Positions 1,429 through 53,747 of a DNA stretch of 64,000 nt are shown here, piece by piece. The notes below the pieces were generated by a model. That model was not told the DNA's origin. It ran no database searches and was given only the letters and a program-made list of their open reading frames with translations. Made by a program: the position numbers and the translations under genes. Numbering within the stretch: position 1 is the stretch's first letter; every line of letters starts with the position of its first letter. Source of the stretch: an uncultured bacterium (lineage in GTDB: Bacteria > Auribacterota > Erginobacteria > Erginobacterales > Erginobacteraceae); the NCBI GenBank assembly GCA_964587835.1, contig CAZPMN010000001.1, positions 88,968 to 152,967 on the forward strand, written 5' to 3'.

Positions 1429-1544
1429 GAATTGCCTTACAAATAGGGTATTTCTCTATCCGCCACCGCCGACGGCGGCCTTGAACAACTAAAGATTTAT
1501 TTACACGATTGATCGGCCGTACCGGGTCACCCCGGAGAGGACAG

Positions 1545-4500
1545 ATGATGAATCAATCAACATTTCCCCTCTCAGCTCTTCTGCCCAGTTCTCTCGCCCG
1601 TCTCTGTGGAACTTCTCTTATGCTTATCCTCCTGTCCGCATTTCTTACCGCCAGCCTCTTCTTGTCCGGATCTATCTTTGCCCAGGGGCCGATGGAGATC
1701 TGGTTTGTCTCCCAGTACGGCTCCGCCGGAACCGCCACCTTGATCAAGGGCCCGGACGGGACGGTGGTCCTCTACGACGAGAGCGGGGGAACGGATGGCG
1801 GCAACGCGGTCTACAATATCTGTGCCGCCGAGGGGATTTCCTACATCGACTACGCCATCGGAGGCCATTACGACTACGACCACATCGGCGGGCTCAGTCA
1901 GCTCTCAAGCCAGTTGGGGGGGGATTCGGCTTTCGGGACCTACTACGACCGGGGCGGGTCCACGAACTATGACGGCGCCGCCATCGCCTCCTCCTACTAC
2001 GACATAGTCAACGGCAACCCGAAGCGGGAGACGGTGGTCCTGGACGGGTCGAGCGACATAGTTCTCGGGACCTATAACGGCCAGACGGCGCTGCTCCAGT
2101 TTATGTCGGTGGGATCTGCGGATAATGGCGGATCGGGAGACCCCGCCCTCTACATCCGGGGTCGTTCCACCGTGACCAGCGGGATCTCGGAGAACAACAA
2201 GTCGATCTCGGCCCTGGTCTCCTTCCCCGCAGCTTCCGGGGCGGCCGGTTTCGACCTCTACCTCGGTTCCGACCTCGAGGGGACAGGGGAGCTGGCGGTG
2301 GATGATGTAGTCTCGGATCTGCGCGGCTCTCGGGACGGGGCCGGGGTGGACGTTCTCCTGGTCGATCACCACGGCTCCTACACCAATGGGATCAGTTCCC
2401 CGACCTTCTTCGGAAATATGAACCCCGAGCTGGCCTTGATCTCGGTCTGGAACAACGGCTTCGAGCATCCGCGGATCGAGGTGGTGGAGAACCTCCAGCA
2501 GGTGGTGGATCCTCTCGACCAGCGGATCATCCGTCTGATGCCGGGGGATACCAACCCGACCGAGGGCGAGTGGGCCCCGGAGACGATGGACTACTGCCAC
2601 ACCACCGGCAGCGATTCGATCAACGGGACGGTCAAGATCACCGTCTCCACCGATGGTCTCTTTTACACGGTGACCGGGTACGGGATTACTGAGTCCGGTC
2701 TGATCAACCACCCGGTGGACGAGGGAGTGATCACCCCCACCCCAACGGTGAGAGTGGTGACCCCGACCCCGGCGCCGTCGCCTTCCCCGACGGCGGTACC
2801 CAGCCTGGACGTGGTCATTAACGAGATCGCCTGGATGGGGACGACTTACAGCACGGACGCCGAGTGGATCGAGTTTTACAACCCCAACCCCTCGAGCGCG
2901 ATCGACATCAGTACCTGGTCGATCTACGGCGCGCATTCCGGCAATTTGATTAACTTCGCCGACGCCGATGGCTGGACGACGACCACCATCCCGGCTGGCG
3001 GCTATCTGGTCTACGGGAATTCGAATTTCATCTTTGCCTCGGGGGCGGAGGTGGCAATCTGGGACGCGACGATCCAGTTGCTCAACACCTCACCCGGCGA
3101 AGTTCGGCTCTACAACGCGGCGGACGCCGGGGGCACGCTGGTGGACGTGGCCAACCAGCCGACCGGGGACTGGTTCGCCGGGGAAGTCGGTGTGGGCACG
3201 ATGGAAAGGATTCACCCGGAGGTTTATGGAACGACTGATTCAAACTGGGCAACCTGGGACGGGGTGGCCTTCGCCACCGACTCGGGGAGCAATGACATCC
3301 TCGGATCGCCGGGAGCGATCAACAGCGCCTATGCGGAAGCCACCCCGACCCCGAGAGTGATTACCCCGACTCCGCCTCCGACGCGGACTCCTCCCCCGAC
3401 TCCTCCGCCGACCGCTTCGCCTACCCCGAGCGCGATTCCGACCTCAACCCCGACTCCGACGGCGGTGCCGACGGCAACCCCGGTGCCGACCGCGGTACCC
3501 AGCGGTGACGTGGTCATAAACGAGATCGCCTGGATGGGGACAACCTACAGCACTTCCGAGGAGTGGATCGAGCTCTACAACACGACCGGCAGTCCGATCG
3601 ATATCAGCGGCTGGTCGATCTACGGAGCCGACACCGGCCAGGTCATTAACTTCGCCGCCGCCGACGGCTGGGCGGAAACCACGATCGCGGCCGGTGGTTA
3701 TCTGCTCTATTGCAACAGCAGCACCGTCTTTGCTTCCGGTGCCAGCGAGGATATCTGGGACGCCACGATCGGGATGGATAATACCAACCCCGGGCAGGTC
3801 CGTCTCTACGATGGGGCGAACGGCTCCGGGAACCTGATCGACGTCGCCAACCAGCTCTCCGGCGACTGGTTCGCCGGCGAGGCCGGGGTGGGGACGATGG
3901 AGAGAATCGACCCGTATTTCTACGGGACGGTCTCGACCAACTGGATGACCTGGGACGGGGTGGCCTTCGCCACCGACTCCGGGGGCAACGACATCCTCGG
4001 TTCCCCGGGCGCAATTAATAGTGCCTTTGTGGGCAACACTCCGACCCCGACGCCGAGGGTGATTACCCCGACGCCGACTCTTACGCCGGCCTCCTGCGAC
4101 GCAATTACCGACGGTGATATGGAGTACGCCGATATCACCTACTGGCCGCATACCGATGTCACCGACGTTAACTCCAGCGCCAAGGCGACTGATCGGAAGC
4201 AGGGCGGATCGCAGTCGCTGAAGGGGACCGGAGCCGCTGGCCGGAATATCTCCGTCAGCTGGTTCAACGCCCAGACGGTGGGAGAGATTGCCGCGTCCGA
4301 CCCGGTCACCCTCAGTCTCTGGTACGGATACCAGGTCCACAATTATAACACCGTCAAGTCCGCCACGATTTACTTCGACGTCAAGGCCGCCTCGGCCGGG
4401 ACCTGGACCACCGCCTGGAGCCACGATCTTTTCTATGAGATCAGCGCCGACTTTGCCTCGTCCTCGATTTCCAGTCTGGATATCAGCGACTCCTTTACCA

Positions 4501-7500
4501 CCGACGACACCTATCAGGTCCGCCTGCGTTTCGTGGGGCAGAATGACAATGACCCCAGTACCTACATCAATATCTGGTGGGATGACGTGATCCTGGAAGT
4601 TCCTTGCCCGGTGGTGGCGACCCCGACCCCGACGCCGCGGGTAATAACCCCAACCCCGACGCCGAAGATAGTCACTCCGACGCCGTCCGCTCCTCCCACC
4701 TCCACGCCAACGGTTCCGCCGACGCTGACGCCGACACCGACCGCGGTACCAACTGTCCCCCCGCCGGCGACGGCTACTCCCACTCCGAGCCCGGTTCCCA
4801 CGGCTTCGCCGGTTTCGACAGCTTCGCCGGTCCCGACGGCCTCACCGACGCCGGAGATCTGCACCCGGATCAGCGAGGGGTTCGATGATTTTGTCGATCC
4901 GGCCTGGACGGTTCCGGCCGGTTGGACTTTCTCCGGGATTGCCGGCGGCGATGTCTATACCACCACCGGGAATTTCGGTTATCTCTCCCCCTCGCTCAAG
5001 CTCGATAATACGGGTGACGCGGCCACCACCGCCGCCTTTGCTGATGCGGCCTGGCTCCAGTTCTGGCTGAAAGGTCAGGGCACCGACGACACCAGCAGCC
5101 TTCTGGTCGAGGAATACTGGTCGGGTTCATGGAATGAAATTACCACTATCGTTCCCCTGCCGACGTCGGGAACGTATTTTACCGGCTTGGCGCTGAACCC
5201 CGCGACCAGCCAGGTGAAGTTCAGCTACACCAAGGTAGCGGGGAACATTGGTCTGGACGATGTCCTGGTGGCCTGCCTGGTCACGCCCACCCCCTGGGTG
5301 GCGACCCCGACCCCGACTCCGAAGGTGATCACCCCGACCCCAACCCCGAGCGCGCCGCCGACAACGACGCCGACGGCCAGCCCGGTGCCGACCATCAGCC
5401 CGGTTCCCACGGCTTCGCCGGCGCCCAGTCTGACCCCCAATCTCCTGATCGACCAGGTCTATCGCTCCCCGGGCGATGATTATGACTATGTGGTCCTCTT
5501 CAATCCCCTAGAGTGGGCGATCAACCTCGGCGATGAGGGCTACACCCTCAATATGCAGACGGATATCGACTACGGGGAGAGCTACGCCTTCAGTAGTTGC
5601 GACGAGATCCCGGCGGGAGGATATTTTATGGTGGCCTCGCAGGGCCGGGTGGACAGCGTTTGGGCCGATGCCGTCGCCCCTGTCCGGGTGGTCAAAGGCA
5701 GTACCGCCGGCAATTCCTGGGTCCAACTACTGAAAGATTCCGCTCAGGTGGACGCCCTGGGCTGGGCTACCAACCCGGATTACTTTGAGACAACCGGGGC
5801 TTCCGGGACGATCACCGGCTCCCTGGCCTTCTTCCGTAGTGCCTACGGGATTGCCCATATCGATACCAACGATAACTCCGCCGATTTCACGCGTTCCACC
5901 TATGTCCCGGTCAGCTCCGGCAATGTCACCAACTGGTTCACCCACACCCTCTGGCCGGTCGAAGATCTGGAACCCCAGGAGTGGAGCCGGGTTTACGCCG
6001 GAGGGAGTGATTATTATTACCAGGCCATCAATGAAAGTCATCCCCCCACCGACTACGATCATTACCTTTACAGCAACCCTTCGAGCGCTACCGAAAGTGC
6101 CTGGTTCCGCCTGGCCGACTTCCCCTGGAACACGGTTGAGGGCGATCCCTGCCGCCGGGTCAACCTACAGATCCGGGCCTTCGGGTACCAGACCGGCCTG
6201 ACCCGGTCTTCGGTCATCCTGCGGAGTGGGGGGGTTGAGTCCAGTAGGGAATACAGGTTCTCCGAACAGACCGGGCTGGTGGACTGGATTACCGGTTGGG
6301 ACAAGGATCCGGCCACCGGTGGCTTTTGGACCCAGACCGGTCTTTCAGGGTTGGAGATCGGGATTGAGAACGACGATGATGTAAGCAAGATCCTGACCCA
6401 GTTCTACGCCCTGGTCTGGTACACCGGCGACCCGCCCCCGCCTTCCCCCACCCCCACGGCCTCGTATCCCCCGACTCCGAGTCCGACGCCGAGCCTGATA
6501 CCGACGGCGACGCCGCCGCCGACCGCGATCCCGACCCCGAGTATGTCGCCGACCGCCACCCCGCCGCCGACGGTGACTCCGCCCCCGACTCCGCCCCCAA
6601 CGGCGACTCCAGTGCCGACGGCGTCGCCGACACCGGAGATCTGCACCCGGATCGACGAGGGGTTTGACGATTTCGATATCGGGACTCGCCCGGCCGGTTG
6701 GACCTTCACCGGTTGCGACGCGAACTGGGACGTTTACACTTCGTCGGGGAACTTCGGCCATCTCCCCCCCTCGATCAAGCTCGATGCCACGGGAGATTCG
6801 GTTGCCTCAGCTTCATTCTCCAACGGGGACTGGCTCCAGTTCTGGGTCAAGGGACAGAACGCCCATATCTCCAGCGAACTGTTGGTCGAGGAGTACTGGT
6901 CGGATTCCTGGAACGAGGTCACCACGATTGCCCCGATTCCGAACTCGGGGACCATGTTCACCGGCTTGACCCTGGACCCCTTCGCCAGCCGGGTCAGGTT
7001 CAGCTATACCAAGGTCTCCGGCAACCTGGCCCTGGACGACGTTTTGGTCAGCTGCCGCCCCTCCGATGGATTCCAGTCCGTGGTCTTCAACGAGTTCGCC
7101 TGGTTCGGGACGGCGGCCAGCGCCGACGATGAGTGGATGGAGCTGCGCAGCAACAGCAGTTCGGCGATCAATCTCCAGAACTGGCGAATTGCCGCCGCCG
7201 ACGGCAACCCGGACTTCACCATCCTCTCCGACGTATCGATCCCGGCCTATGGTTTCTTCCTGATCGAAAGAGGGACGGACGGATGCATCATCGATAAGAC
7301 GGCCGACTTTATTTATCCGGTGGAAAATGAAATGGACGATTCGGGTGACTGGATGCAGCTCTTCGATTTCGACGGTGCCCTGGTGGATGAAGTGATCGAG
7401 GGAAGTTGGTTTGCGGGGACGGGCGAACCTTACTACTTCACAATGGAGCGGATCGATCCCGAAATTACCGGAAACGTGGATTGGAACTGGTACGACAACA

Positions 7501-8771
7501 ACGGCGTGGATATCACGGGCACCGACGCCGATGGGAACGAGATCAACGGCACCCCGGGCGAGGAGAACAGCGAATATGACCCGACCTACGTGGAACTGGT
7601 TGATTTCTCCGCTACCGGCTATGACGGCCTGATCGCGGTGGAGTGGGAGACCGGGGCGGAGACCGACAACTTCGGGTTTATTGTCCACCGGTCGGAGAGT
7701 GAACGGGACGAATTCCAACAGGTGAGTGTGTTTATCGATGCCTCGGGCAACCCGACCGGGGGACGTTACCTCTTCCCCGACGAGTCGGTCGAGAACGGGA
7801 TAAGGTACTACTACAAGCTGGAGGACATATCCACCGATCTTGAGAGCACGCTTCACGGTCCGGTCTCGGCCACCGCTCTCTCTACAGGTGGGGAACTGTC
7901 CTATGACCCTGCCGATTACACCGCGGTGGGAGAGAAATACATCACTCCGACGCCCGTTCCCTTGCCGACGGCCAGGCCCACGGCCTATTCCCCATTCCCC
8001 ATTCCCCATTTCCCCACTCCCATCCCACTGCCCATCGTCGACCGCGGCGACTACGATGGCGACGGGACCAGCGACATCGCGGTCTTCCGCTCCGCCGGCG
8101 GGCTCTGGCTGGTGAGGGGGATGACCCGCATCTACTTCGGCGCCGCCGGCGACATTCCGGCTGCGGGGAACTATGCCCCGGACGCCAGGAGCGAGATTGC
8201 GATTTACCGCCCATCCACCGGCCTCTGGGCAATCCGGAACCTGAGCCGGTTTTACTTCGGTGCGGGAGAAGACATTCCGGTTCCGGCCGATTACAGCGGG
8301 GACAGCCTGGCGGACGCCGCGGTCTACCGGCCGGCGTCCGGGTTATGGGCGGTGCGAAACTGGAGCCGGGCGCATTTCGGACGTCCGGGAGACATCCCGG
8401 TTCCCGGGGATTACGACGGCGACGGGAAGGCCGAGTTTACGGTTTACCGGCCGGAATCCGGTCTCTGGGCGGTGCCGGGAATTACCCGGCTGTATTTCGG
8501 AGCAGCCGGGGACATTCCGGTTCCGGGGGACTACAGCGGCGACGGCACCACCGAGGTGGGAATCTTCCGCCCGAACAGTGGCCTCTGGGTAATCCGAAAC
8601 CTGAGCCGGTTCTATTTTGGGCGTCCCGGAGATCTCCCGGTCCCGATGGGCGGTATGGGGGCCTGGAAGCAGGTCCCGGCCGTCTACCGACCCGGCTCCG
8701 GCTTCTGGGCGATCCGGGGCGTGACCCGGGCCTACTTCGGAGACCGGAAGGATCTCCCGGTGACGAGATAG
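1545..8771 (+). CDS. Giant secreted/surface protein (about 2,400 aa): signal peptide, ComEC-like MBL-fold domain, four lamin-tail domains (LTD), Pro/Thr-rich linkers, CBM-like beta-sandwich modules (one pair duplicated), C-terminal FG-GAP/VCBS-like repeats (6-7 copies)
   Basis: ORF track 1509..8771; the likely start is ATGATG at 1545 after a GGAGAGG SD. N-terminal hydrophobic signal (LMLILLSAFLTASLFLSGSIFAQG). MBL motifs resemble the ComEC C-terminal domain: GGHYDYDHIGGL (HxDxDH variant of HxHxDH), LLVDHHGSYTNG, ISVWNNGFEHPRIEVVENL. LTD signatures VVINEIAWMGTTYS...EWIEFYN...IDISTWSIYG (nt ~2811 and ~3510), LLIDQVY...DYVVLFNP (~5440), VVFNEFAWFG...EWMELRS (~7075). Repeated TPTPTPRVITPTPTP linkers. 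A ~150-aa module is duplicated (EICTRISEGFDDF... at ~4860 and EICTRIDEGFDDF... at ~6640). C-terminal repeats GDYDGDGKAEFTVYRPESGLWAV...FGAAGDIPVPGDY (nt ~8030-8760). Confidence 0.85.
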   Translation: MMNQSTFPLSALLPSSLARLCGTSLMLILLSAFLTASLFLSGSIFAQGPMEIWFVSQYGSAGTATLIKGPDGTVVLYDESGGTDGGNAVYNICAAEGISYIDYAIGGHYDYDHIGGLSQLSSQLGGDSAFGTYYDRGGSTNYDGAAIASSYYDIVNGNPKRETVVLDGSSDIVLGTYNGQTALLQFMSVGSADNGGSGDPALYIRGRSTVTSGISENNKSISALVSFPAASGAAGFDLYLGSDLEGTGELAVDDVVSDLRGSRDGAGVDVLLVDHHGSYTNGISSPTFFGNMNPELALISVWNNGFEHPRIEVVENLQQVVDPLDQRIIRLMPGDTNPTEGEWAPETMDYCHTTGSDSINGTVKITVSTDGLFYTVTGYGITESGLINHPVDEGVITPTPTVRVVTPTPAPSPSPTAVPSLDVVINEIAWMGTTYSTDAEWIEFYNPNPSSAIDISTWSIYGAHSGNLINFADADGWTTTTIPAGGYLVYGNSNFIFASGAEVAIWDATIQLLNTSPGEVRLYNAADAGGTLVDVANQPTGDWFAGEVGVGTMERIHPEVYGTTDSNWATWDGVAFATDSGSNDILGSPGAINSAYAEATPTPRVITPTPPPTRTPPPTPPPTASPTPSAIPTSTPTPTAVPTATPVPTAVPSGDVVINEIAWMGTTYSTSEEWIELYNTTGSPIDISGWSIYGADTGQVINFAAADGWAETTIAAGGYLLYCNSSTVFASGASEDIWDATIGMDNTNPGQVRLYDGANGSGNLIDVANQLSGDWFAGEAGVGTMERIDPYFYGTVSTNWMTWDGVAFATDSGGNDILGSPGAINSAFVGNTPTPTPRVITPTPTLTPASCDAITDGDMEYADITYWPHTDVTDVNSSAKATDRKQGGSQSLKGTGAAGRNISVSWFNAQTVGEIAASDPVTLSLWYGYQVHNYNTVKSATIYFDVKAASAGTWTTAWSHDLFYEISADFASSSISSLDISDSFTTDDTYQVRLRFVGQNDNDPSTYINIWWDDVILEVPCPVVATPTPTPRVITPTPTPKIVTPTPSAPPTSTPTVPPTLTPTPTAVPTVPPPATATPTPSPVPTASPVSTASPVPTASPTPEICTRISEGFDDFVDPAWTVPAGWTFSGIAGGDVYTTTGNFGYLSPSLKLDNTGDAATTAAFADAAWLQFWLKGQGTDDTSSLLVEEYWSGSWNEITTIVPLPTSGTYFTGLALNPATSQVKFSYTKVAGNIGLDDVLVACLVTPTPWVATPTPTPKVITPTPTPSAPPTTTPTASPVPTISPVPTASPAPSLTPNLLIDQVYRSPGDDYDYVVLFNPLEWAINLGDEGYTLNMQTDIDYGESYAFSSCDEIPAGGYFMVASQGRVDSVWADAVAPVRVVKGSTAGNSWVQLLKDSAQVDALGWATNPDYFETTGASGTITGSLAFFRSAYGIAHIDTNDNSADFTRSTYVPVSSGNVTNWFTHTLWPVEDLEPQEWSRVYAGGSDYYYQAINESHPPTDYDHYLYSNPSSATESAWFRLADFPWNTVEGDPCRRVNLQIRAFGYQTGLTRSSVILRSGGVESSREYRFSEQTGLVDWITGWDKDPATGGFWTQTGLSGLEIGIENDDDVSKILTQFYALVWYTGDPPPPSPTPTASYPPTPSPTPSLIPTATPPPTAIPTPSMSPTATPPPTVTPPPTPPPTATPVPTASPTPEICTRIDEGFDDFDIGTRPAGWTFTGCDANWDVYTSSGNFGHLPPSIKLDATGDSVASASFSNGDWLQFWVKGQNAHISSELLVEEYWSDSWNEVTTIAPIPNSGTMFTGLTLDPFASRVRFSYTKVSGNLALDDVLVSCRPSDGFQSVVFNEFAWFGTAASADDEWMELRSNSSSAINLQNWRIAAADGNPDFTILSDVSIPAYGFFLIERGTDGCIIDKTADFIYPVENEMDDSGDWMQLFDFDGALVDEVIEGSWFAGTGEPYYFTMERIDPEITGNVDWNWYDNNGVDITGTDADGNEINGTPGEENSEYDPTYVELVDFSATGYDGLIAVEWETGAETDNFGFIVHRSESERDEFQQVSVFIDASGNPTGGRYLFPDESVENGIRYYYKLEDISTDLESTLHGPVSATALSTGGELSYDPADYTAVGEKYITPTPVPLPTARPTAYSPFPIPHFPTPIPLPIVDRGDYDGDGTSDIAVFRSAGGLWLVRGMTRIYFGAAGDIPAAGNYAPDARSEIAIYRPSTGLWAIRNLSRFYFGAGEDIPVPADYSGDSLADAAVYRPASGLWAVRNWSRAHFGRPGDIPVPGDYDGDGKAEFTVYRPESGLWAVPGITRLYFGAAGDIPVPGDYSGDGTTEVGIFRPNSGLWVIRNLSRFYFGRPGDLPVPMGGMGAWKQVPAVYRPGSGFWAIRGVTRAYFGDRKDLPVTR

Positions 8772-37967: not shown

Positions 37968-39036
37968 CGTCTTTCCTCCTGGTTTCCTTGAGCAATATAG
38001 CCCGAAGGTGGGTGACCTGGCAAAGGAATTCTACCGGTTTTTCCGGCGTTCCGTTCTCCAGGGTGGACCAGGCCGGACAGACGTTACAGATCCCCCGGAG
38101 CTCACAGTCGTTGCATCTGTTCGGCTCCCTGGTTACTTCATTTCTGACCCGGGGGATGAACTGATCCCATCCCTCGCGGAAGCTCCCCCGGATCAGATTG
38201 TAACGAAAGTTGGTATCCAGAACGCAGAGACCGAGCTGGCCAGAGGAGGAGACGTGGAAAGAACAGAGTCCTCCGCCGCATTTATAAAGTCGGTCCGATT
38301 TTACCGGCCCCCATTTCCGGCAGTCAAAGGAAAGCCAGGCCCGCCACTTATCCGGATCTTCGTAATCGAGCTCGATGACCTCCTGCGGGGAGAGACGGTA
38401 GCCGGTACCGCTGCGGGAACCGTTCAACTGGGCGCAGATCAGGGCGTCGAATCGGAAATCCTTCCCGTAGTCGGCCGCCAGTTTTCTCATCTGCCGGATT
38501 TCCTGTCGGTTGACGGTATTGATGACCGACCTAAAACTGAAAGAGATGTCTCTCTCCGCGAGCAGATCAATAGCCTGCCGGAATTGCCGGTAACTGCCCG
38601 GCACCCCGGAAATTTTCTCGTACGTCTCTTCAGTGGCGCCGAGCAGGCTGATGTCGATCTGATATGGAGGATACCGGTCCAGAAAATCCGCTATCTCCCG
38701 GTCGATCAGTGTTCCGTTGGTGAAGACGTTTATCAAGAAACCTTTTTTTATAGCGTACTGATAGATGGAACGAAAATCATCCCGGATGAACGGTTCTCCC
38801 CCGCTGAAGGTGAGACAGAGCCCCCCCCGATCGGCGATCTGGTCTATGAGAGAGCAGACCTGCTTCCGGCTCAACTCCTCTTCCGGCGGGGTCTGACGGG
38901 CGAAACCAACGTAACAGTACGGACAGCGGAGATTGCATCTCCGGGTCAATTCAATCATCCCCAGCAGGGGGAGATGGTCTCTCCGCGCTTTTTCCCAGAG
39001 TGAGAATTCAACCGCGCTCTCGATGGGGGGAGGCAT
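37921..39036 (-). CDS. Radical SAM / SPASM-domain peptide-modifying enzyme (PqqE/anSME-like)
   Basis: CNLRCPYCYV (CxxxCxxC), LTFSGGEPF, C-terminal SPASM cysteines CGGGLCSFHVSSSGQLGLC and CNDCELRGICNVCPAW. Confidence 0.85.
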   Translation of the reverse strand: MPPPIESAVEFSLWEKARRDHLPLLGMIELTRRCNLRCPYCYVGFARQTPPEEELSRKQVCSLIDQIADRGGLCLTFSGGEPFIRDDFRSIYQYAIKKGFLINVFTNGTLIDREIADFLDRYPPYQIDISLLGATEETYEKISGVPGSYRQFRQAIDLLAERDISFSFRSVINTVNRQEIRQMRKLAADYGKDFRFDALICAQLNGSRSGTGYRLSPQEVIELDYEDPDKWRAWLSFDCRKWGPVKSDRLYKCGGGLCSFHVSSSGQLGLCVLDTNFRYNLIRGSFREGWDQFIPRVRNEVTREPNRCNDCELRGICNVCPAWSTLENGTPEKPVEFLCQVTHLRAILLKETRRKDDEKEKALPKTRTQGR

Positions 39037-39040
39037 TCTC

Positions 39041-40102
39041 TTATCTCATCCGTGATCTGATCGAAAACCGGAAGTCCTCGATGATCTTTAAAAATAGAAA
39101 GACGATCAGCCCGACCAGGAAGAGCATCCCGGCGGCCAGGCTGCGGTCGGCGTACTTCATCACCAGGGCGAGCAGGCCGAGGTTGATCGTCAGCAGGTAG
39201 AACATCCGCACCGTTTCCCGGGGGGAGAATCCCATCTCCACCAGCCGGTGGTGGAGATGCTTCCGGTCCCCGGTTAAGGGGTTTTGCCCCCGGGCGATCC
39301 GACGGCAGAAGGCGATGGTCAGGTCGGCCAGGGGCAGGAGGAGGACGATCAGGGGCAGGATCAGGGCGATCCCGGCGGTGGTCTTGAAGGAACTCTGGAT
39401 CGAGACCGCCGCCAGAATGAAGCCGATCAGAAGGCTTCCGGTGTCGCCGAGGAAGATCCGGGCGGGGTAACGGTTGTAGCGGAGGAAGCCCAGGCACCCC
39501 CCGACCAGGGCGATGGTTATGGTCGGCATAAAGGGGAGTCCGTCCACGCTGCTGAAGAAGAGAACCAGTCCGGCGATCGCCGCCGTTCCGGCGGCCAGCC
39601 CGTCCAACCCGTCGAGAAGGTTAAAAGCGTTGGTCACGGTGAGCACCCAGAGAACGACCAGCGGCCCGCCCCATAATCCGAGCCGGATCTGGCCTCCCAG
39701 GGGATTGGTCAGGACCTCCACATTGTAGCCGCAGGCGATCAGAATCAGGGCGGCGATGGTCTGGAAGATCAGTTTCACCGGCGCTCGTGCCCCCCGGATG
39801 TCATCGAAAATCCCCAGCCCGAGGATGATAACCCCACCCAGGACCAGGCCCAGGTAGTGGGTATCGAACGAACCCAGCATTTGGCTCCGGCCGAGCAGAA
39901 AGGAGATGCCGGTGGAAATGATGAAGGCGATGAAGATGATTACCCCTCCCAGCAGGGGAACTTCCCTTCCCGCCCCGCCTGATTCAAGGGATCGGGCGGT
40001 TACCCGGCGCATCCGCACCCAGCGCGCCACCGGCGGGGTGGCCAGCAGCGCGATGGCCAGGGAGAGAAGAAAAACCAACCAGTACATCCCCATCTCCGTC
40101 AT
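39041..40102 (-). CDS. Polyprenyl-phosphate N-acetylhexosamine-1-phosphate transferase (WecA/MraY family, GT4 of PF00953); catalytic motifs intact
   Basis: IFDDIRGARAPVKL (DD), NAFNLLDGLDGLAAG, RIFLGDTGSLLIGF, KHLHHRLVEMGF. Confidence 0.8.
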   Translation of the reverse strand: MTEMGMYWLVFLLSLAIALLATPPVARWVRMRRVTARSLESGGAGREVPLLGGVIIFIAFIISTGISFLLGRSQMLGSFDTHYLGLVLGGVIILGLGIFDDIRGARAPVKLIFQTIAALILIACGYNVEVLTNPLGGQIRLGLWGGPLVVLWVLTVTNAFNLLDGLDGLAAGTAAIAGLVLFFSSVDGLPFMPTITIALVGGCLGFLRYNRYPARIFLGDTGSLLIGFILAAVSIQSSFKTTAGIALILPLIVLLLPLADLTIAFCRRIARGQNPLTGDRKHLHHRLVEMGFSPRETVRMFYLLTINLGLLALVMKYADRSLAAGMLFLVGLIVFLFLKIIEDFRFSIRSRMR

Positions 40103-41151
40103 CGGCTTTCTCCCGGTTCTTCTCCGTCCAGCACCAGGATCCGCGACCTGTACTCTTCGACGATCCTGAAGAGAAGATAGAGCATCGACCCCACCAGGAA
40201 GAAGATCCCCAGGGCCAGGATCCTCCCGGCGGCGGCGGCGACCAGGGCGATCATCCCCAGGTTTGCCTGGAGCAGGTAGATAAGCAGAACCACCTGCCGG
40301 GGAGAATAACCGAGCAGGAGAAGCCGGTCGGCGATCTGCCGCGGTCTGGGGTTCCTCCCCGCCGGGGATGCGGGGGCGGGGGGTCGGCCGAAGATGGCGA
40401 AGACCAGGGCCAGGATCGGGAGGATCAGGGCGATCCCGGCGGTGGCCTTGAATTCACCCTGGGCGGCGATCGCTGCCAGGAGGAAACCGAGGAAGAAGGT
40501 CCCGGTTCGCCCGAGGTGGATCCGGGCCGGGTAGAAGTTGTAACGGAGGAAACCCGCGCAGCCCCCGACCGTGGCCAGGGCCAGGACGGGGACAAAGGGC
40601 GGCCCGGTCAGGGCGGCAAAAAAGATAGTGGCGGCGGCGATGGCGGCGATCCCGGCGGCCAGTCCGTCGATCGTATCGATGAGGGCGAAGGCGTTGACCA
40701 TCCCCGTAACCCAGGCGACCAGGAGCAGCGCTCCCGCCGGGCCGAGGCTGATCTTGTCGCCGGCCAGGAAGGTGACCGTGTCCAGCCGGTAACCGCAGCT
40801 GACCAGAATCAGCCCGGCCAACGCCGTGACCGCGATCTTCAGGGGCCAGTGAACCTTGCGGATGGCATCCCGGAGGCCGAGGAGAATCATCAGGGTTCCA
40901 CCGAGCAGGACCCCCAGGTAATGATAGTCGTAAAAACCGAGCAACCGCTCTCGGTTGAAGAGAAAGGCGGCCCCGGTAACCGCGATGAAGGAGAGGTAGA
41001 TCACCACCCCCCCGGAGAGGTTCAGGGCCCGGCTTCGGACCCGGCCGCTGGGGCCGTGGTGCGAGATGCCGTAATGGGAAGAAAGGCGGATCAGGGCCGG
41101 GGTAAGGACCAGGGAGAGAAGCGCGGTGGCAATGAAGATGATAAAATTCAT
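40099..41151 (-). CDS. WecA/MraY-family paralog with degenerate catalytic motifs (probable pseudoenzyme or altered specificity)
   Basis: Same 10-11 TM topology and NAFALIDTIDGLAAG motif. The DD motif is replaced by RD (LGLRDAIRKV), GDTGS by GRTGT (RIHLGRTGTFFLGF), and the His-rich C-terminal loop is absent (RQIADRLLLLGY). Confidence 0.7.
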   Translation of the reverse strand: MNFIIFIATALLSLVLTPALIRLSSHYGISHHGPSGRVRSRALNLSGGVVIYLSFIAVTGAAFLFNRERLLGFYDYHYLGVLLGGTLMILLGLRDAIRKVHWPLKIAVTALAGLILVSCGYRLDTVTFLAGDKISLGPAGALLLVAWVTGMVNAFALIDTIDGLAAGIAAIAAATIFFAALTGPPFVPVLALATVGGCAGFLRYNFYPARIHLGRTGTFFLGFLLAAIAAQGEFKATAGIALILPILALVFAIFGRPPAPASPAGRNPRPRQIADRLLLLGYSPRQVVLLIYLLQANLGMIALVAAAAGRILALGIFFLVGSMLYLLFRIVEEYRSRILVLDGEEPGESR

Positions 41152-41155
41152 AGAC

Positions 41156-42268
41156 TCATTCTAACAACTCCTGGTACATTCGGAAAGTCCGCTCGGCCAT
41201 TCTTTCCTTGGTGAATTCTTCTTCCACTCTCTGCCGGCCCCGTTTTCCCAGCTCCTCCCCCCGGTCCGGTTCGTCGAGAATCCGGTTAAGTGCCCGGGCC
41301 AGGGACCGGGAGTCCCGAGGCGGGGCGACCAGTCCGGTAACCCCGTCGAGGTTGGTGTAAGTGACCCCAGTTTCGAGCCGGGTGCTGATTACCGGGCGGG
41401 AGCTGGCCATCGCCTCCAACTGGACGATACCGAAGGCCTCGTTACGGGAGATCGAGGGAAGGCAGAAGACCGAACAGGCCCGGAGGTAGGCCAGGAGGTT
41501 GTCCCGGGATACCTCGCTCATCAGGACGACCCGGTCCTCCAGGCCGTGAGAGACCACCATCATCTTCAGGGCGTCAAACCTCTCGCCGCTCCCGATAATC
41601 ACGAGTTTCCCGGTTACCTCCTCCATCGCCTTGACCAGGTATTCCACCCCCTTGTAGAGGGTCAGCCGTCCGACAAAGAGGACGATCCGATCGCCGAGCC
41701 GTTTACGGATCAGTTGGGCCTGAGCGTTGATCTCCGCCCGATCCGCGTAGAGCGAGAGGTCGATCCCGATCGGGATCAGCACGCACTTCTCCCGGAACCG
41801 CTGCAGGACAGCAGACCCTTCCAGGTAGCGGGGCGAGGCGACGACGATCCTCTCCGCCCGGGCCAGAAATTTCAGCAGCAAAGGACGGTAAAGCAGCCCG
41901 GCGATTTTCTGCCTGACGATGTCGCTCTGATAGACCACCGTCAGCCTCCCCGGTGGACGGGCTTTCAGGTAGGAGATCGTGGCCAGGGGATTGGGGTGGT
42001 GGACGGTGATGATATCGGCGGCGTTTTCCCTTAGCAGCCGAGGGAATGAGGGGCTGAGCGAAGTCGAGAGCAACCTTCCCCAGCTCCCGGCTCGGATTAC
42101 CTCCACCCCATCCACGGTCTCCCGAACGGTCCGGGGGGAGGTGTTGGAGACCAGGACCTTTAGATCGACCCGGTTCTTCAGCCCCTGGCAGAGGTCGAGG
42201 AGGTAAGTCTCCATCCCGCCCCGGTAGGGGTGGTAGAATTTTCCGACCTGGAGGACGCTGAATCTCAT
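41156..42268 (-). CDS. Glycosyltransferase family 4
   Basis: SRNEAFGIVQLEAMASSRPVISTRL. The ATG at 42268 (MRFSVLQVGKFYHP...) is preferred over the TTG at 42310, which would run into the intergenic palindromic repeat. Confidence 0.75.
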   Translation of the reverse strand: MRFSVLQVGKFYHPYRGGMETYLLDLCQGLKNRVDLKVLVSNTSPRTVRETVDGVEVIRAGSWGRLLSTSLSPSFPRLLRENAADIITVHHPNPLATISYLKARPPGRLTVVYQSDIVRQKIAGLLYRPLLLKFLARAERIVVASPRYLEGSAVLQRFREKCVLIPIGIDLSLYADRAEINAQAQLIRKRLGDRIVLFVGRLTLYKGVEYLVKAMEEVTGKLVIIGSGERFDALKMMVVSHGLEDRVVLMSEVSRDNLLAYLRACSVFCLPSISRNEAFGIVQLEAMASSRPVISTRLETGVTYTNLDGVTGLVAPPRDSRSLARALNRILDEPDRGEELGKRGRQRVEEEFTKERMAERTFRMYQELLE

Positions 42269-42278
42269 TTTGATTGAC

Positions 42279-42358
42279 CTGTCAGTGCGAGGAACGAAGC
42301 GACGAAGCAATCTCAGGAGGTTTTTTTAAAAAAAAGATTGCTTCGTTCACAATGACAG
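42279..42358. repeat. REP-like palindromic element between two GT4 genes (same family as 12701..13022)
   Basis: CTGTCAGTGCGAGGAACGAAGCGACGAAGCAATCTC-aggaggtttttttaaaaaaaa-GATTGCTTCGTTCACAATGACAG; inverted arms with a T7A8 loop. Confidence 0.65.
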
Positions 42359-46828: not shown

Positions 46829-48343
46829 TTATGAACCGGTTCGAATACGCTCGGTGACATCCAGAAAAACTCCGGGTGAATTTTTGCCTGAATAAAAACA
46901 CCGGTCTTCAAGCAAGGGTATTTCCGCCTGGAAGCATTGGTTGAATAACACTCGGAAAGTGTTGACCGGAGTAATCGAGTCATAAATTCCCTTCTCGCTC
47001 TCTCCAGGAAGAAGATAGGCGCTAAAAATACTCATCTGCCTTCGGAGAAACTCGTCGCTGGGAGCCTTCTCCAGAAAGATGTAGAATTCGTGAATGAAAC
47101 CAGAACCGTGGTCTGCCTGGATGATAATGACCGGCGGTGTTTTGGAACGTCCGATTATACGACCGACCAGTTCCTTGAGCCGGCGATTCACGTAGGCGAC
47201 CTGGCCGGCATATAGTTCCTCAAGACTACCTCCCTTCCCGAGCCGGGGATCCACATTGTCCAGAAAGACCTCTCCTCCATCGGCCTGGAAGACGAACGGG
47301 GGATGTGGGCAGAGTATGTGACCGAATACAAATTTGGGGCCCGGGATATCTATCGCTTTTTTCAATGATCGGAAACCATCCAATACGGCGCTCCGATGCT
47401 GTTTGATCCTGATAATGGAGGCCAGGGGTTTGGCGGCGGTGGTGCTGAGCAGCATAATCCAGAACCGGCCGTGGAGACTGCGGCGCAGATCGTCCTCCCG
47501 GTAGCGGCCGATTGTCAGCTTTCCCGTTGTATCGATGTAGACCAGCTGATATCCGCGGGATTCAAGAAAACCCGCCACGGCACTGTCGAGTACCAAGTGC
47601 TGTTGTGTGTCCAGAAGATTGGCGTCCCGGAGGTTCTGAAGGTAGTCCATATTCAATGTCGAGGGTAGCGAGAGACTGGTATACGCGTAATTGGAACAGC
47701 TCTCGGATGGTACAGAGAAACCTTTGGCGGTGAGATAATCTATGAACGGCTGATTGTCATAACCGTAAGCCTCCTTAAGCACGTCAGAGCGAACATAAGC
47801 GTCCGGAAGAATATAATAGATGTCCGGATGACTCTCTCCCCCGGAGCCGTTCTCCGACACCTTCAAGGAATCCGGTATTTCTGTTGCCTGTTTGCGCAGA
47901 ATCCCTGCTGTGATGCCAGGCAGGGCGGAGATGACCAGGACGGCGCCGACCAGATTTGCGATCTGGACAAAAATCGGCTTCTGCTTCCGGAACCGCTCCC
48001 TCAGCAGCAGCCAGGAGCCGACTCCCCCGAGAGCCGTCCAGAGAGGAAGGAAGTATCTGAAACGCCCCAGTGAGTGACCGATCTCGGAAGAGTAGTAAAT
48101 ATAACTGTGTATATGGCCGGCGGAGAAAAACCAGAACAACACAAGTGATGTCAGGATCGCCCCCCGAGACGAATCCTTAAACGCAAACGTGAATAATCCC
48201 CACAAAACCCCAGCCACTGCCAGCGTGACCCCGAGTGATGATAGAACATCGGCGAGCGGTGTCCTGTCATAATTTACCGAATATAGAAGAAACACCGGAT
48301 AAGCCGAGAAGAACAGCAGATGGAATGGATAGGGTTTCTTCAT
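46829..48343 (-). CDS. Membrane-anchored sulfatase/alkaline-phosphatase-superfamily protein (LtaS/EptA-like phosphotransferase)
   Basis: Five N-terminal TM helices, then the extracytoplasmic domain DIYYILPDAYVRSDVL... with a sulfatase-like arrangement. Confidence 0.5.
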   Translation of the reverse strand: MKKPYPFHLLFFSAYPVFLLYSVNYDRTPLADVLSSLGVTLAVAGVLWGLFTFAFKDSSRGAILTSLVLFWFFSAGHIHSYIYYSSEIGHSLGRFRYFLPLWTALGGVGSWLLLRERFRKQKPIFVQIANLVGAVLVISALPGITAGILRKQATEIPDSLKVSENGSGGESHPDIYYILPDAYVRSDVLKEAYGYDNQPFIDYLTAKGFSVPSESCSNYAYTSLSLPSTLNMDYLQNLRDANLLDTQQHLVLDSAVAGFLESRGYQLVYIDTTGKLTIGRYREDDLRRSLHGRFWIMLLSTTAAKPLASIIRIKQHRSAVLDGFRSLKKAIDIPGPKFVFGHILCPHPPFVFQADGGEVFLDNVDPRLGKGGSLEELYAGQVAYVNRRLKELVGRIIGRSKTPPVIIIQADHGSGFIHEFYIFLEKAPSDEFLRRQMSIFSAYLLPGESEKGIYDSITPVNTFRVLFNQCFQAEIPLLEDRCFYSGKNSPGVFLDVTERIRTGS

Positions 48344-51783: not shown

Positions 51784-53718
51784 ATGCCCAAAGTAATCGG
51801 AATCGACCTGGGAACGACCAATTCCTGCATGGCGGTGATGGAAGGCAAGGAACCGAAGGTTATCTCCAACGCCGAGGGGAGCCGGGTTACCCCTTCCGTG
51901 GTCGCCTTCACCAAGACCGGGGAAAGGTTGGTCGGCCAGCCGGCCAAGCGGCAGGCCATCACCAACTCGGCCAACACCGTCTTCTCGATTAAGCGCTTTA
52001 TGGGAAGGCGGTACGACGAGGTCTCCTCGGAGATCAAGCTCGTCCCCTACAAGGTGATCAAGGCCGCCAACGGCGACGCCCGAGTCGAGGCGGAGGGCAA
52101 GATTTACTCCCCGCCCGAGATCTCGGCTATGCTCCTGCGCAAGATGAAGCAGGACGCCGAGTCCCACCTGGGCGACAAGGTGACTGCGGCGGTGATCACG
52201 GTCCCCGCCTATTTCAACGACAGCCAGCGGCAGGCGACCAAGGACGCCGGAAAGATCGCCGGACTGGAGGTGAAGCGGATCATCAACGAGCCGACCGCGG
52301 CCTCCCTGGCCTACGGACTGGACAAGAAGAAGGACGAGAAGATCGCCGTCTTCGATCTCGGGGGCGGGACCTTCGATATTTCGATCCTGGAGATCGGGGA
52401 GGGCGTCTTCGAGGTCAAGTCGACCAACGGGGATACCCATCTCGGGGGTGACGACTTCGACCAGCGGGTGATCGACTGGATCGCCGAGGAGTTCAAGAAG
52501 GACCAGGGGATCGACCTCAAGCAGGACGCGATGGCGATCCAGCGGCTGAAGGAGGCGGCCGAAAAGGCCAAGTGCGAACTTTCCTCGACCAAGGAGACCG
52601 AGATCAACCTCCCCTTCATCACCGCCGACGCCGCCGGTCCCAAGCACCTCTCGATGAAGCTAACCCGGGCCAAGCTCGACCAGCTCTGCGAGGACCTGAT
52701 CAACCGGACGGAGAATCCCTGCCGGCAGGCGCTTAAGGACGCCGGGCTGGCCGCCGACGGGATCGATGAGGTAATCCTGGTCGGGGGAATGACCCGGATG
52801 CCGGCGGTCCAGGAGATGGTGAAAAAACTCTTCGGCAAGGATCCTCACAAGGGGGTCAACCCGGACGAGGTGGTCGCCATCGGGGCCGCTATCCAGGCCG
52901 GAGTGCTCCAGGGGGATGTCAAGGACGTACTCCTGCTCGACGTCACTCCGCTCTCGCTGGGGATCGAGACCCTTGGGGGCGTGATGACCCGCCTGATCGA
53001 GCGCAACACCACCATCCCGACCAAGAAGAGCGAGATCTTCTCGACCGCGGCCGACAACCAGACCCAGGTCGAGATCCACGTTCTCCAGGGGGAACGGGAG
53101 ATGGCCTCCGCCAACCGGACGATCGGAAAGTTTCACCTTACCGGGATTCCCCCGGCTCCCCGGGGCGTCCCTCAGATCGAGGTTTCCTTCGATATCGACG
53201 CCAACGGGATCCTCAACGTCTCGGCCAAGGACCTCGGCACCGGCAAGGAGCAAAATATCACCATCACCGCCTCCAGCGGCCTGGAGAAGGAAGAGGTGGA
53301 GAAGATGGTCAAGGATTCCGAGCAGCACGCCGAGGAAGATAAGCAACTGAGGGAAGCGGTTGACGCCAAGAACCAGGGCGACGCCGCCGCCTACCAGGCG
53401 GAAAAACTCCTCAAGGACAACGAGGGAAAGATTTCCGCCGAAGCCAAGGCCAAGATCGAGGCCGCGATCGAGCGGTTGAAGACCGCCCTCAAAAACGAGG
53501 AAGTCGAGGAGATCAAATCCGCCACCGAGGACCTCAACCAGTCCTGGCACGCGGTCAGCCAGGAGATGTACCAGCAGGCAGCCGGGCAGCCGGGCGCCGA
53601 CGCCGGGCCGTCCGCCGGCCCCCAGGCCCCGCCTCCGCCTCCGGAAGCAGAGGAAAAATCCCCGGAAGGCGAGGTCATCGATGCTGAATTCGAGGTTGAG
53701 GACGAGGGGAAGAAGTAA
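51784..53718 (+). CDS. dnaK: Molecular chaperone DnaK (Hsp70)
   Basis: [24 protein letters not shown]-terminal EEVD-like acidic tail; GGAGGA SD upstream. Confidence 0.97.
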
Positions 53719-53747
53719 TTCGGAAAGACACCGCGAAGTCACCAAGT

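Follow-up and report, generated by a model that had tools for sequence, protein, structure and literature searches.

Why would a glycan-assembly operon carry two adjacent genes of the MraY/WecA family when one of them appears to have lost its catalytic residues? The question is raised by a 64,000-nucleotide stretch of DNA (hereafter the window) from an uncultured bacterium of the Auribacterota (assembly GCA_964587835.1, contig CAZPMN010000001.1, positions 88,968 to 152,967). Its minus strand encodes gene B (40099..41151, 350 amino acids), a degenerate PF00953 (MraY/WecA-type) paralog recognized from its open reading frame (ORF), its Pfam match and an AlphaFold2 (AF2) model, and gene A (39041..40102, 353 amino acids), a canonical PF00953 phosphoglycosyl transferase recognized from its ORF and Pfam match, with all of its motifs intact. 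Judged from the sequences, the favored answer, to which a probability of roughly 0.55 is given, is that B is a catalytically disabled tandem duplicate working with A, and that A initiates the glycan of this locus as a polyprenyl-phosphate sugar-1-phosphate transferase.

Family membership and the lost motifs of B

The earlier note on this DNA, made from the letters alone, had described adjacent MraY/WecA-family paralogs, and this description holds. Both proteins score above the Pfam cut-off of 27 bits for PF00953 (A 133.8 bits, B 94.4 bits), and they are 42% identical over 343 residues in a pairwise alignment (E = 2e-79). Neither passes the WecA equivalog TIGR02380 (NCBIfam cut-off 326; A 106.8 bits, B 40.8 bits) or the MraY equivalog TIGR00445 (cut-off 192; A 79.2 bits, B 39.2 bits), and A is therefore regarded as an initiating transferase without an assigned donor, not as WecA in the strict sense. 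Among sequences in the PDB, A matches MraY (1e-13) and DPAGT1 (1e-8). The predicted structure of B retains the MraY-type polytopic membrane fold: a Foldseek search of the PDB with the AF2 model of B (mean predicted local confidence, pLDDT, of 67.8; predicted template modeling score, pTM, of 0.70, with 0.74 for the model of A) returned no chains other than those of MraY and DPAGT1 at E <= 0.001, with TM-scores of 0.52-0.62.

The degenerate gene is the second of the two only in plus-strand coordinates, as the note had counted; on its own strand B lies upstream and is transcribed first. The 4-nucleotide ATGA overlap, in which B stops and A starts (40099..40102, minus strand), is real. The start of A is supported by the N-terminus MTETxIYWL, common to the three closest relatives (P0121, P0272 and P0273), and the sequence GGGAG stands 7 nucleotides 5' of the start codon. 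Had A started at a Met further inside, there would be no overlap; this was rejected because the relatives with the MTE N-terminus have Ile at that position.

Residues were mapped with phmmer alignments to solved MraY and DPAGT1 chains, the pairwise alignment of A and B, and a profile-profile alignment of both clades. In loop 3, D95-A96 of B (40864..40869) corresponds to D100-D101 of A (39800-39805) and to D117/D118 of MraY. The reading of RD for DD in the earlier note was off by one, as both the pairwise and the profile-profile alignments place FDD of A opposite RDA of B: D95 is kept and A96 replaces the second Asp. This loss is limited to one subclade of B-type proteins, B1, and the loop-3 Lys is kept in both proteins (A K110, B K105; MraY K133, DPAGT1 K125). 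In loop 5, B reads NAFALIDTIDGLA (40657..40695) and A reads NAFNLLDGLDGLA (39593-39631), so that N158-A-F-N161-L-L-D164-G165-L-D167 of A faces N153-A-F-A156-L-I-D159-T160-I-D162 of B. The NAxNxxDGxDGLA motif thought to be shared is thus altered in B, where A156 replaces the Asn that guides Mg2+ and the acceptor (MraY N190, DPAGT1 N185) and T160 replaces the Gly.

Two other changes, GRTGT for GDTGS and the loss of the His-rich motif, were described correctly in the earlier note. In loop 7, HLGRTGT of B (H212-L-G-R215-T-G-T, 40498..40518) stands against FLGDTGS of A (F217-L-G-D220-T-G-S, 39434-39454), placing Arg at the position of an Mg2+ ligand (MraY D265, DPAGT1 D252) and His212 at that of the uracil-stacking Phe (MraY F262). 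In loop 9, residues 251-277 of B, FAIFGRPPAPASPAGRNPRPRQIADRL (40321..40401), stand against PLADLTIAFCRRIARGQNPLTGDRKHLHHRL of A (39242-39334). The A sequence runs PLADLTIAFCRR…KHLHHRL and the B sequence FAIFGRPPAPASP…RQIADRL; both PxxD…RR, within the near-universal motif P[LI]xD[TA]x6RR, and HxHH are gone from B, and none of the His residues of HxHH is left. Loop 9 of B is also 5-6 residues shorter than that of A and variable in sequence. In the model of B, helix 9 stops at residue 254 and residues 255-270 form a coil with pLDDT below 50, whereas the equivalent helix of A runs through residue 271, a weak comparison given that confidence is low there in A too. In the alignment to solved chains, the missing Asn and Asp fall on Mg2+-ligand positions.

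The Mg2+-ligand pair is therefore Ala and Arg in the B protein of the window, and A/S/T/G and R/S across the B clade, while in A every family motif is intact, including the ligand pair and loop 9. B retains the Asp-Lys pair D95/K105 and the core of loops 5 and 7 (DGLA and GFLRYNFYPARI). Within the B clade, there is little or no variation at D95, K105, N153, D162 and N205 or along the stretch GFLRYNFYPARI; this stretch corresponds to W253, F254, N255 and Q260 of MraY.

The roles of these positions are known from solved relatives. In DPAGT1, the ligands of Mg2+ are N185, D252 and the donor pyrophosphate, and the Asp-Lys pair positions the carrier-lipid phosphate (Dong et al., 2018, PMC6218659). 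Residual activity is 1.2% for N185A, 0.7% for N185D, 7% for D252A, below 2.2% for K125 mutants and 2% for an H302 mutant, and D115/D116 mutants are still at least 10% active (PMC6218659). Loop 9 recognizes the donor sugar in both DPAGT1 and MraY. Given these mutant activities, a loss of catalysis in B is indicated most strongly by the absence of the Asn and of the loop-9/His element; the change at DD, and the Asp change taken alone, are weaker evidence of inactivity.

Such a combination of losses is unusual within the family. One background set consisted of the 150 closest 50%-identity representatives from a B-profile search, used for motif background only, as the A- and B-types seem to share one cluster in it (the top match is A-type) and B-like clades elsewhere are not countable there. 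The other comprised PF00953 ORFs in at least 80 unrelated loci from a scan of GTDB, with family members at <=36% identity. In the first set, 138 of the 150 representatives retain the five motifs without change, with at most two motifs lost by any of them, and no loss of more than two was seen among the approximately 230 other family members examined. P[LI]xD[TA]x6RR is changed in 7 of the 150 and intact in all ORFs from unrelated loci for which motifs were printed; nearly all family members examined retain it, with no change beyond D to E or the like. Across the 80 unrelated loci, five PF00953 ORFs have any flagged motif change, and DD, PxxD and HxHH are lost in none. The only one of these 80 loci with two PF00953 genes, L080 (3827-7770, from a metagenome-assembled genome of the Desulfarculia), has both canonical in their Mg2+ ligands; its second gene encodes 603 amino acids and is of a DNMDGLS / HSSH subtype.

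A parallel is found in polyprenyl-phosphate N-acetylhexosamine-1-phosphate transferase (PNPT) variants of the Armatimonadota type, which carry TKxxDxIDGxDGLA and FMG[ST]xGA. These were seen in loci L059, L064 and L078 (Fimbriimonadales/Chthonomonadaceae) and in the proteins P0058, P0060-62, P0075, P0094, P0102 and P0117. Like B, they have neither the Asn of NAxN nor the GDxGS Asp, the latter being replaced by Ser or Thr. Unlike B, they have Asp at the former Asn position, keep DD, PxxD…RR and HLHH, and are encoded by a single PNPT gene per locus. By their sequences, they probably represent a swap of metal ligands in active enzymes.

Distribution, selection and origin of the B-type clade

A search with B recovered 27 B-type clusters (90% identity) at 730 to 255 bits, with the next relatives at 162 bits. 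The corresponding search with A recovered 28 A-type clusters (744 to 343 bits, followed by 251 bits), which lie on contigs whose lengths match those of the B clusters. The named B-type members come from Candidatus Erginobacter occultus and Candidatus Auribacterota. Databases label proteins of this type as 'UDP-GlcNAc:undecaprenyl-phosphate GlcNAc-1-phosphate transferase' or 'MraY family glycosyltransferase', and as statements of function, labels of an active transferase are probably wrong.

Both Mg2+-ligand equivalents (N190 and D265) are absent from all B-type sequences, and two subclades can be distinguished by the remaining motifs. Subclade B1, which includes the window, has D[AT], NAx[AS], D[TS] and GR.G[TS], and its HxHH is missing the first and third His. 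In subclade B2, DD and the Phe are still present, alongside NAL[STGA], D[RKV], GS.G[TN] and QLHN. A new basic residue thus occurs near the former metal site in both: Arg at the Asp position in B1, and Arg or Lys at the Gly position in B2.

The pairing of the two genes is constant. B lies upstream of A in all seven distinct loci read, each A partner is fully canonical, and B without A was seen on none of the contigs read. In these seven loci, the gene order is a glycosyltransferase family 4 (GT4) gene, B, A, a radical S-adenosylmethionine (SAM) gene, a ScmC-like gene, an S26-like peptidase of about 170 amino acids and a C25/PorU-like peptidase of about 1000 amino acids.

Both genes are also under purifying selection, with ratios of nonsynonymous to synonymous substitution rates (dN/dS) of 0.12-0.41 for B and 0.10-0.27 for A. 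B evolves somewhat faster, as protein identity between genomes is 52-81% for B and 63-84% for A. Together with the strict pairing, this selection argues against decay. That B is a decaying duplicate, a pseudogene in progress, would suit the loss of several catalytic motifs and the faster evolution, yet it is very improbable and was rejected because of the dN/dS values and the conservation of the clade: 27 clusters diverging to 48% identity have an intact reading frame, 69 columns are invariant across 24 sequences, and position and orientation are conserved.

Within the protein, constraint has shifted unevenly. The largest rises in column entropy from A to B are in loop 9 (0.75 to 1.68), loop 3 (0.45 to 1.10) and external loop 4 (0.57 to 1.21), with loop 9 being the most variable internal region of B. 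Loop 5 (0.49), loop 7 (0.41) and transmembrane helices 8 and 10 are conserved. On the cytoplasmic face, Q272 is the sole newly conserved polar residue across the whole clade.

In a neighbor-joining tree with 100 bootstraps, monophyly of A and B together, of B, and of B1 is each recovered in 100/100 replicates; B1 is nested in a paraphyletic B2, and the B clade lies within the radiation of A-types. A-types that group with P0291 and P0289 fall outside the main A clade, and their loci, L090 and L092, have the same synteny with one canonical gene directly after a PMT_2 gene and no B. The simplest history suggested by these sequences is a tandem duplication within the A-type lineage of the Auribacterota, followed by stepwise catalytic loss in the upstream copy, which would have passed through the B2 state before reaching B1. 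As a single A-type gene evidently suffices in related organisms, B is regarded as accessory. A gain of B together with the adjacent GT4 gene was considered and rejected, since a 59%-identical GT4 ortholog is found in the single-gene locus L090.

Readings of the gene pair

The earlier note had proposed a catalytically dead partner that would regulate or scaffold the active transferase. The disabled appearance of B, selection on it (dN/dS below 0.41) and its constant pairing with A agree with this proposal, although the DD pair and the lone Asp on which it partly drew are not decisive markers. A resembles the N-acetylhexosamine-1-phosphate transferases of the WecA/TagO/WbpL type in its motif set, its predicted fold and its position in the glycan locus as initiating transferase; B resembles them in fold and differs in lacking the Mg2+ ligands, loop 9 and the His motif. 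In the favored reading, B would be co-expressed with A and assemble with it in the membrane, acting as a non-catalytic protomer that stabilizes or tunes A, or that keeps the carrier lipid or product ready for the neighboring GT4 enzyme. The new positive charge at the former metal site would probably take over from Mg2+ in neutralizing the acidic residues that are left, and the retained residues suggest that B may still bind the carrier lipid or a uridine nucleotide.

An A-B heterodimer would possibly be the most economical arrangement for such joint function, because both solved family members are dimers. DPAGT1 and MraY have differing dimer interfaces (PMC6218659). MraY dimerizes via W253, F254 and Q260, and its W253, F254, N255 and Q260 are part of both the uridine pocket and the dimer interface that binds the C55-P carrier lipid; this carrier lipid thus sits at the interface through residues of the very segment that is invariant in B. 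MraY and DPAGT1, the only structures that the B model matches, form homodimers in which both protomers are active, unlike the proposed pair.

Several observations weigh against the favored reading. The interface argument is weak, as the MraY and DPAGT1 interfaces are not the same and the PDB searches gave no WecA-type structure, and the role of the invariant loop-7 segment in the uridine pocket is a possible alternative cause of its conservation. Translational coupling of B and A is not universal: the spacing is -4 nucleotides in the window, -1 in two loci, and +27, +107 and +207 in three, and a methyltransferase gene lies between B and A in L088. A-type enzymes work without B in the single-gene loci. 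DD is still present in half of the B clade, and subclade B2, which has it, also retains the uracil-stacking Phe and one His. Furthermore, DPAGT1 D252N is 5-fold more active than the wild type (PMC6218659), and natural family members without the Asp of GDxGS exist, so that residual or altered activity of B is possible.

A stronger version of the favored reading is offered only tentatively. In it, B would be the obligate non-catalytic protomer of a heterodimeric initiating transferase, and the first natural pseudoenzyme described in the MraY/WecA/GPT superfamily; its former Mg2+ site would be occupied by a basic side chain, and by means of the Asp-Lys pair and uridine-pocket residues that it retains, B would sense or hold the carrier lipid or nucleotide and thereby gate glycan initiation.

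Of the rival explanations, the one that survives best, although it is rather unlikely, agrees that B is non-catalytic and places its action elsewhere than on A. B might be a sensor or reservoir of carrier lipid or uridine nucleotide, or a decoy for inhibitors, as retention of the Asp-Lys pair and the uridine-pocket residues would allow; it might also serve in the membrane as a scaffold for the GT4 enzymes or the radical SAM peptide cassette, given that the conserved GT4 gene and the radical SAM/small peptide/ScmC-like/peptidase/C25 genes flank it. The variable spacing between B and A fits either form. Against this rival, the GT4 gene and the peptide cassette also occur in loci without B, no gene was gained along with B, and A is the only partner that is both strictly co-distributed with B and adjacent to it.

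It is improbable that B has remained an enzyme whose chemistry or specificity has changed. It could be a metal-independent phosphotransferase with Arg or Lys in place of Mg2+, use another donor, or add a second sugar-phosphate onto a lipid-linked intermediate. The active-site face has not decayed uniformly (K105, D95, N153, D162 and N205 remain), both subclades acquired a basic residue near the former metal site, and the motifs kept by B2, the D252N result and the Armatimonadota-type members that lack this Asp and keep their other motifs all point the same way. However, the equivalent of N185 is never kept, and its replacement by Ala or Asp leaves about 1% of activity in DPAGT1 (PMC6218659). 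The basic residue occupies different positions in B1 and B2, and no newly conserved polar residue on the cytoplasmic face other than Q272 extends across the clade. The retargeted specificity that the earlier note had offered as its second option is weakened in particular, and a new donor specificity is less likely, because the donor-recognition loop of B is shortened and variable: a new specificity loop should be conserved, and loop 9 is the least conserved internal region, differs in length and is modeled as a low-confidence coil.

For the favored reading, that of a disabled B working with A, a partial analogy is provided by the heteromeric cis-prenyltransferase NgBR/Nus1-DHDDS, in which a degenerate paralog and an active enzyme act together in polyprenyl-linked glycan biosynthesis. 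Its fold is unrelated and the system is eukaryotic; its complex and the activating role have been demonstrated experimentally, whereas both are proposed for the A-B pair. In the searchable literature, no description was found of an inactive PNPT paralog, a PNPT pseudoenzyme or a heterodimer containing one, and the genome paper on the Auribacterota does not mention envelope glycan genes. The PNPT enzymes MraY, WecA, TagO and DPAGT1 are targets for antibiotics and in disease, and the reason that they dimerize is still debated. If a pair of one active and one disabled protomer does exist, it would ask whether one active site per dimer suffices, and would probe the contribution of the interface and the bound carrier lipid as well as the coupling of initiation to the next glycosyltransferase. 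The significance is limited by the B clade being small and confined to an uncultured phylum.

The surrounding glycan locus

The operon around the pair is tightly packed on the minus strand. The GT4-family glycosyltransferase gene (41156..42310) ends 4 nucleotides upstream of B, and its ortholog adjoins B in all tandem loci; the 4-nucleotide ATGA overlap follows between B and A, and the radical SAM gene (37921..39036), whose top NCBIfam matches are SPASM-type maturases, begins 4 nucleotides downstream of A. The conserved downstream context continues, also on the minus strand, with the ScmC-like gene (PF27840, 36927-37799), the S26-like peptidase (36397-36930) and the C25/PorU-like peptidase of 1008 amino acids (33214-36240).

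Between the radical SAM and ScmC-like genes, and overlapping the 3' end of the former, lies an ORF of 52 amino acids (37809..37967, minus strand) with a Lys-rich leader (KKKxYRKPElKVVELSFNxAQM) and three conserved Cys in the pattern C…C.LT.C. It has a counterpart in nine of nine further distinct loci, among them L082 (~9284), L084 (~9233), L086 (9159-9320), L087 (~9438), L088 (~10500), L089 (~10028), L090 (9523-9678) and L092 (2752-2907), and is uncalled as a gene in several. By its sequence, it looks like the precursor peptide of a radical SAM maturase, and is a candidate substrate of the adjacent enzyme. Together, the radical SAM gene, the Cys-containing peptide, the ScmC-like gene, the S26-like signal peptidase and the C25/PorU-like gene (33214-39036, minus strand) are recognizable by sequence as a SynChlorMet-like peptide-maturation cassette inside the glycan locus, found in all related loci, the two single-transferase ones among them.

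The wider glycan-assembly region of the window (26625-51191) contains six GT4-type genes, a GT9 (heptosyltransferase-like) gene, two polysaccharide deacetylases, a formyltransferase-domain protein, a PMT_2 (GT-C) protein, a methyltransferase and an NTP_transf_5 protein; a protein of 504 amino acids (46829-48343) matched no family. A plus-strand ORF with a TTG start (1509-8771), encoding 2420 amino acids, lies upstream of the glycan locus. On the other side, a minus-strand ORF (52660-53745) matches PF10712, 'NAD-specific glutamate dehydrogenase', at E = 1e-76, and is probably not a real gene because it lies antisense to dnaK (51784-53718, plus strand, 1062 bits to the DnaK model). In related genomes, small toxin-antitoxin-like or abortive-infection genes (AbiEii/DUF6088, DUF4160/DUF2442, DUF4258 and Unstab_antitox) are inserted at varied points of the conserved locus; these insertions, together with the methyltransferase gene between B and A in L088, are at 308-1917 and 7404-8105 in L088, 11760-12295 in L084, 11375-11844 in L087 and 8649-8867 in L089.

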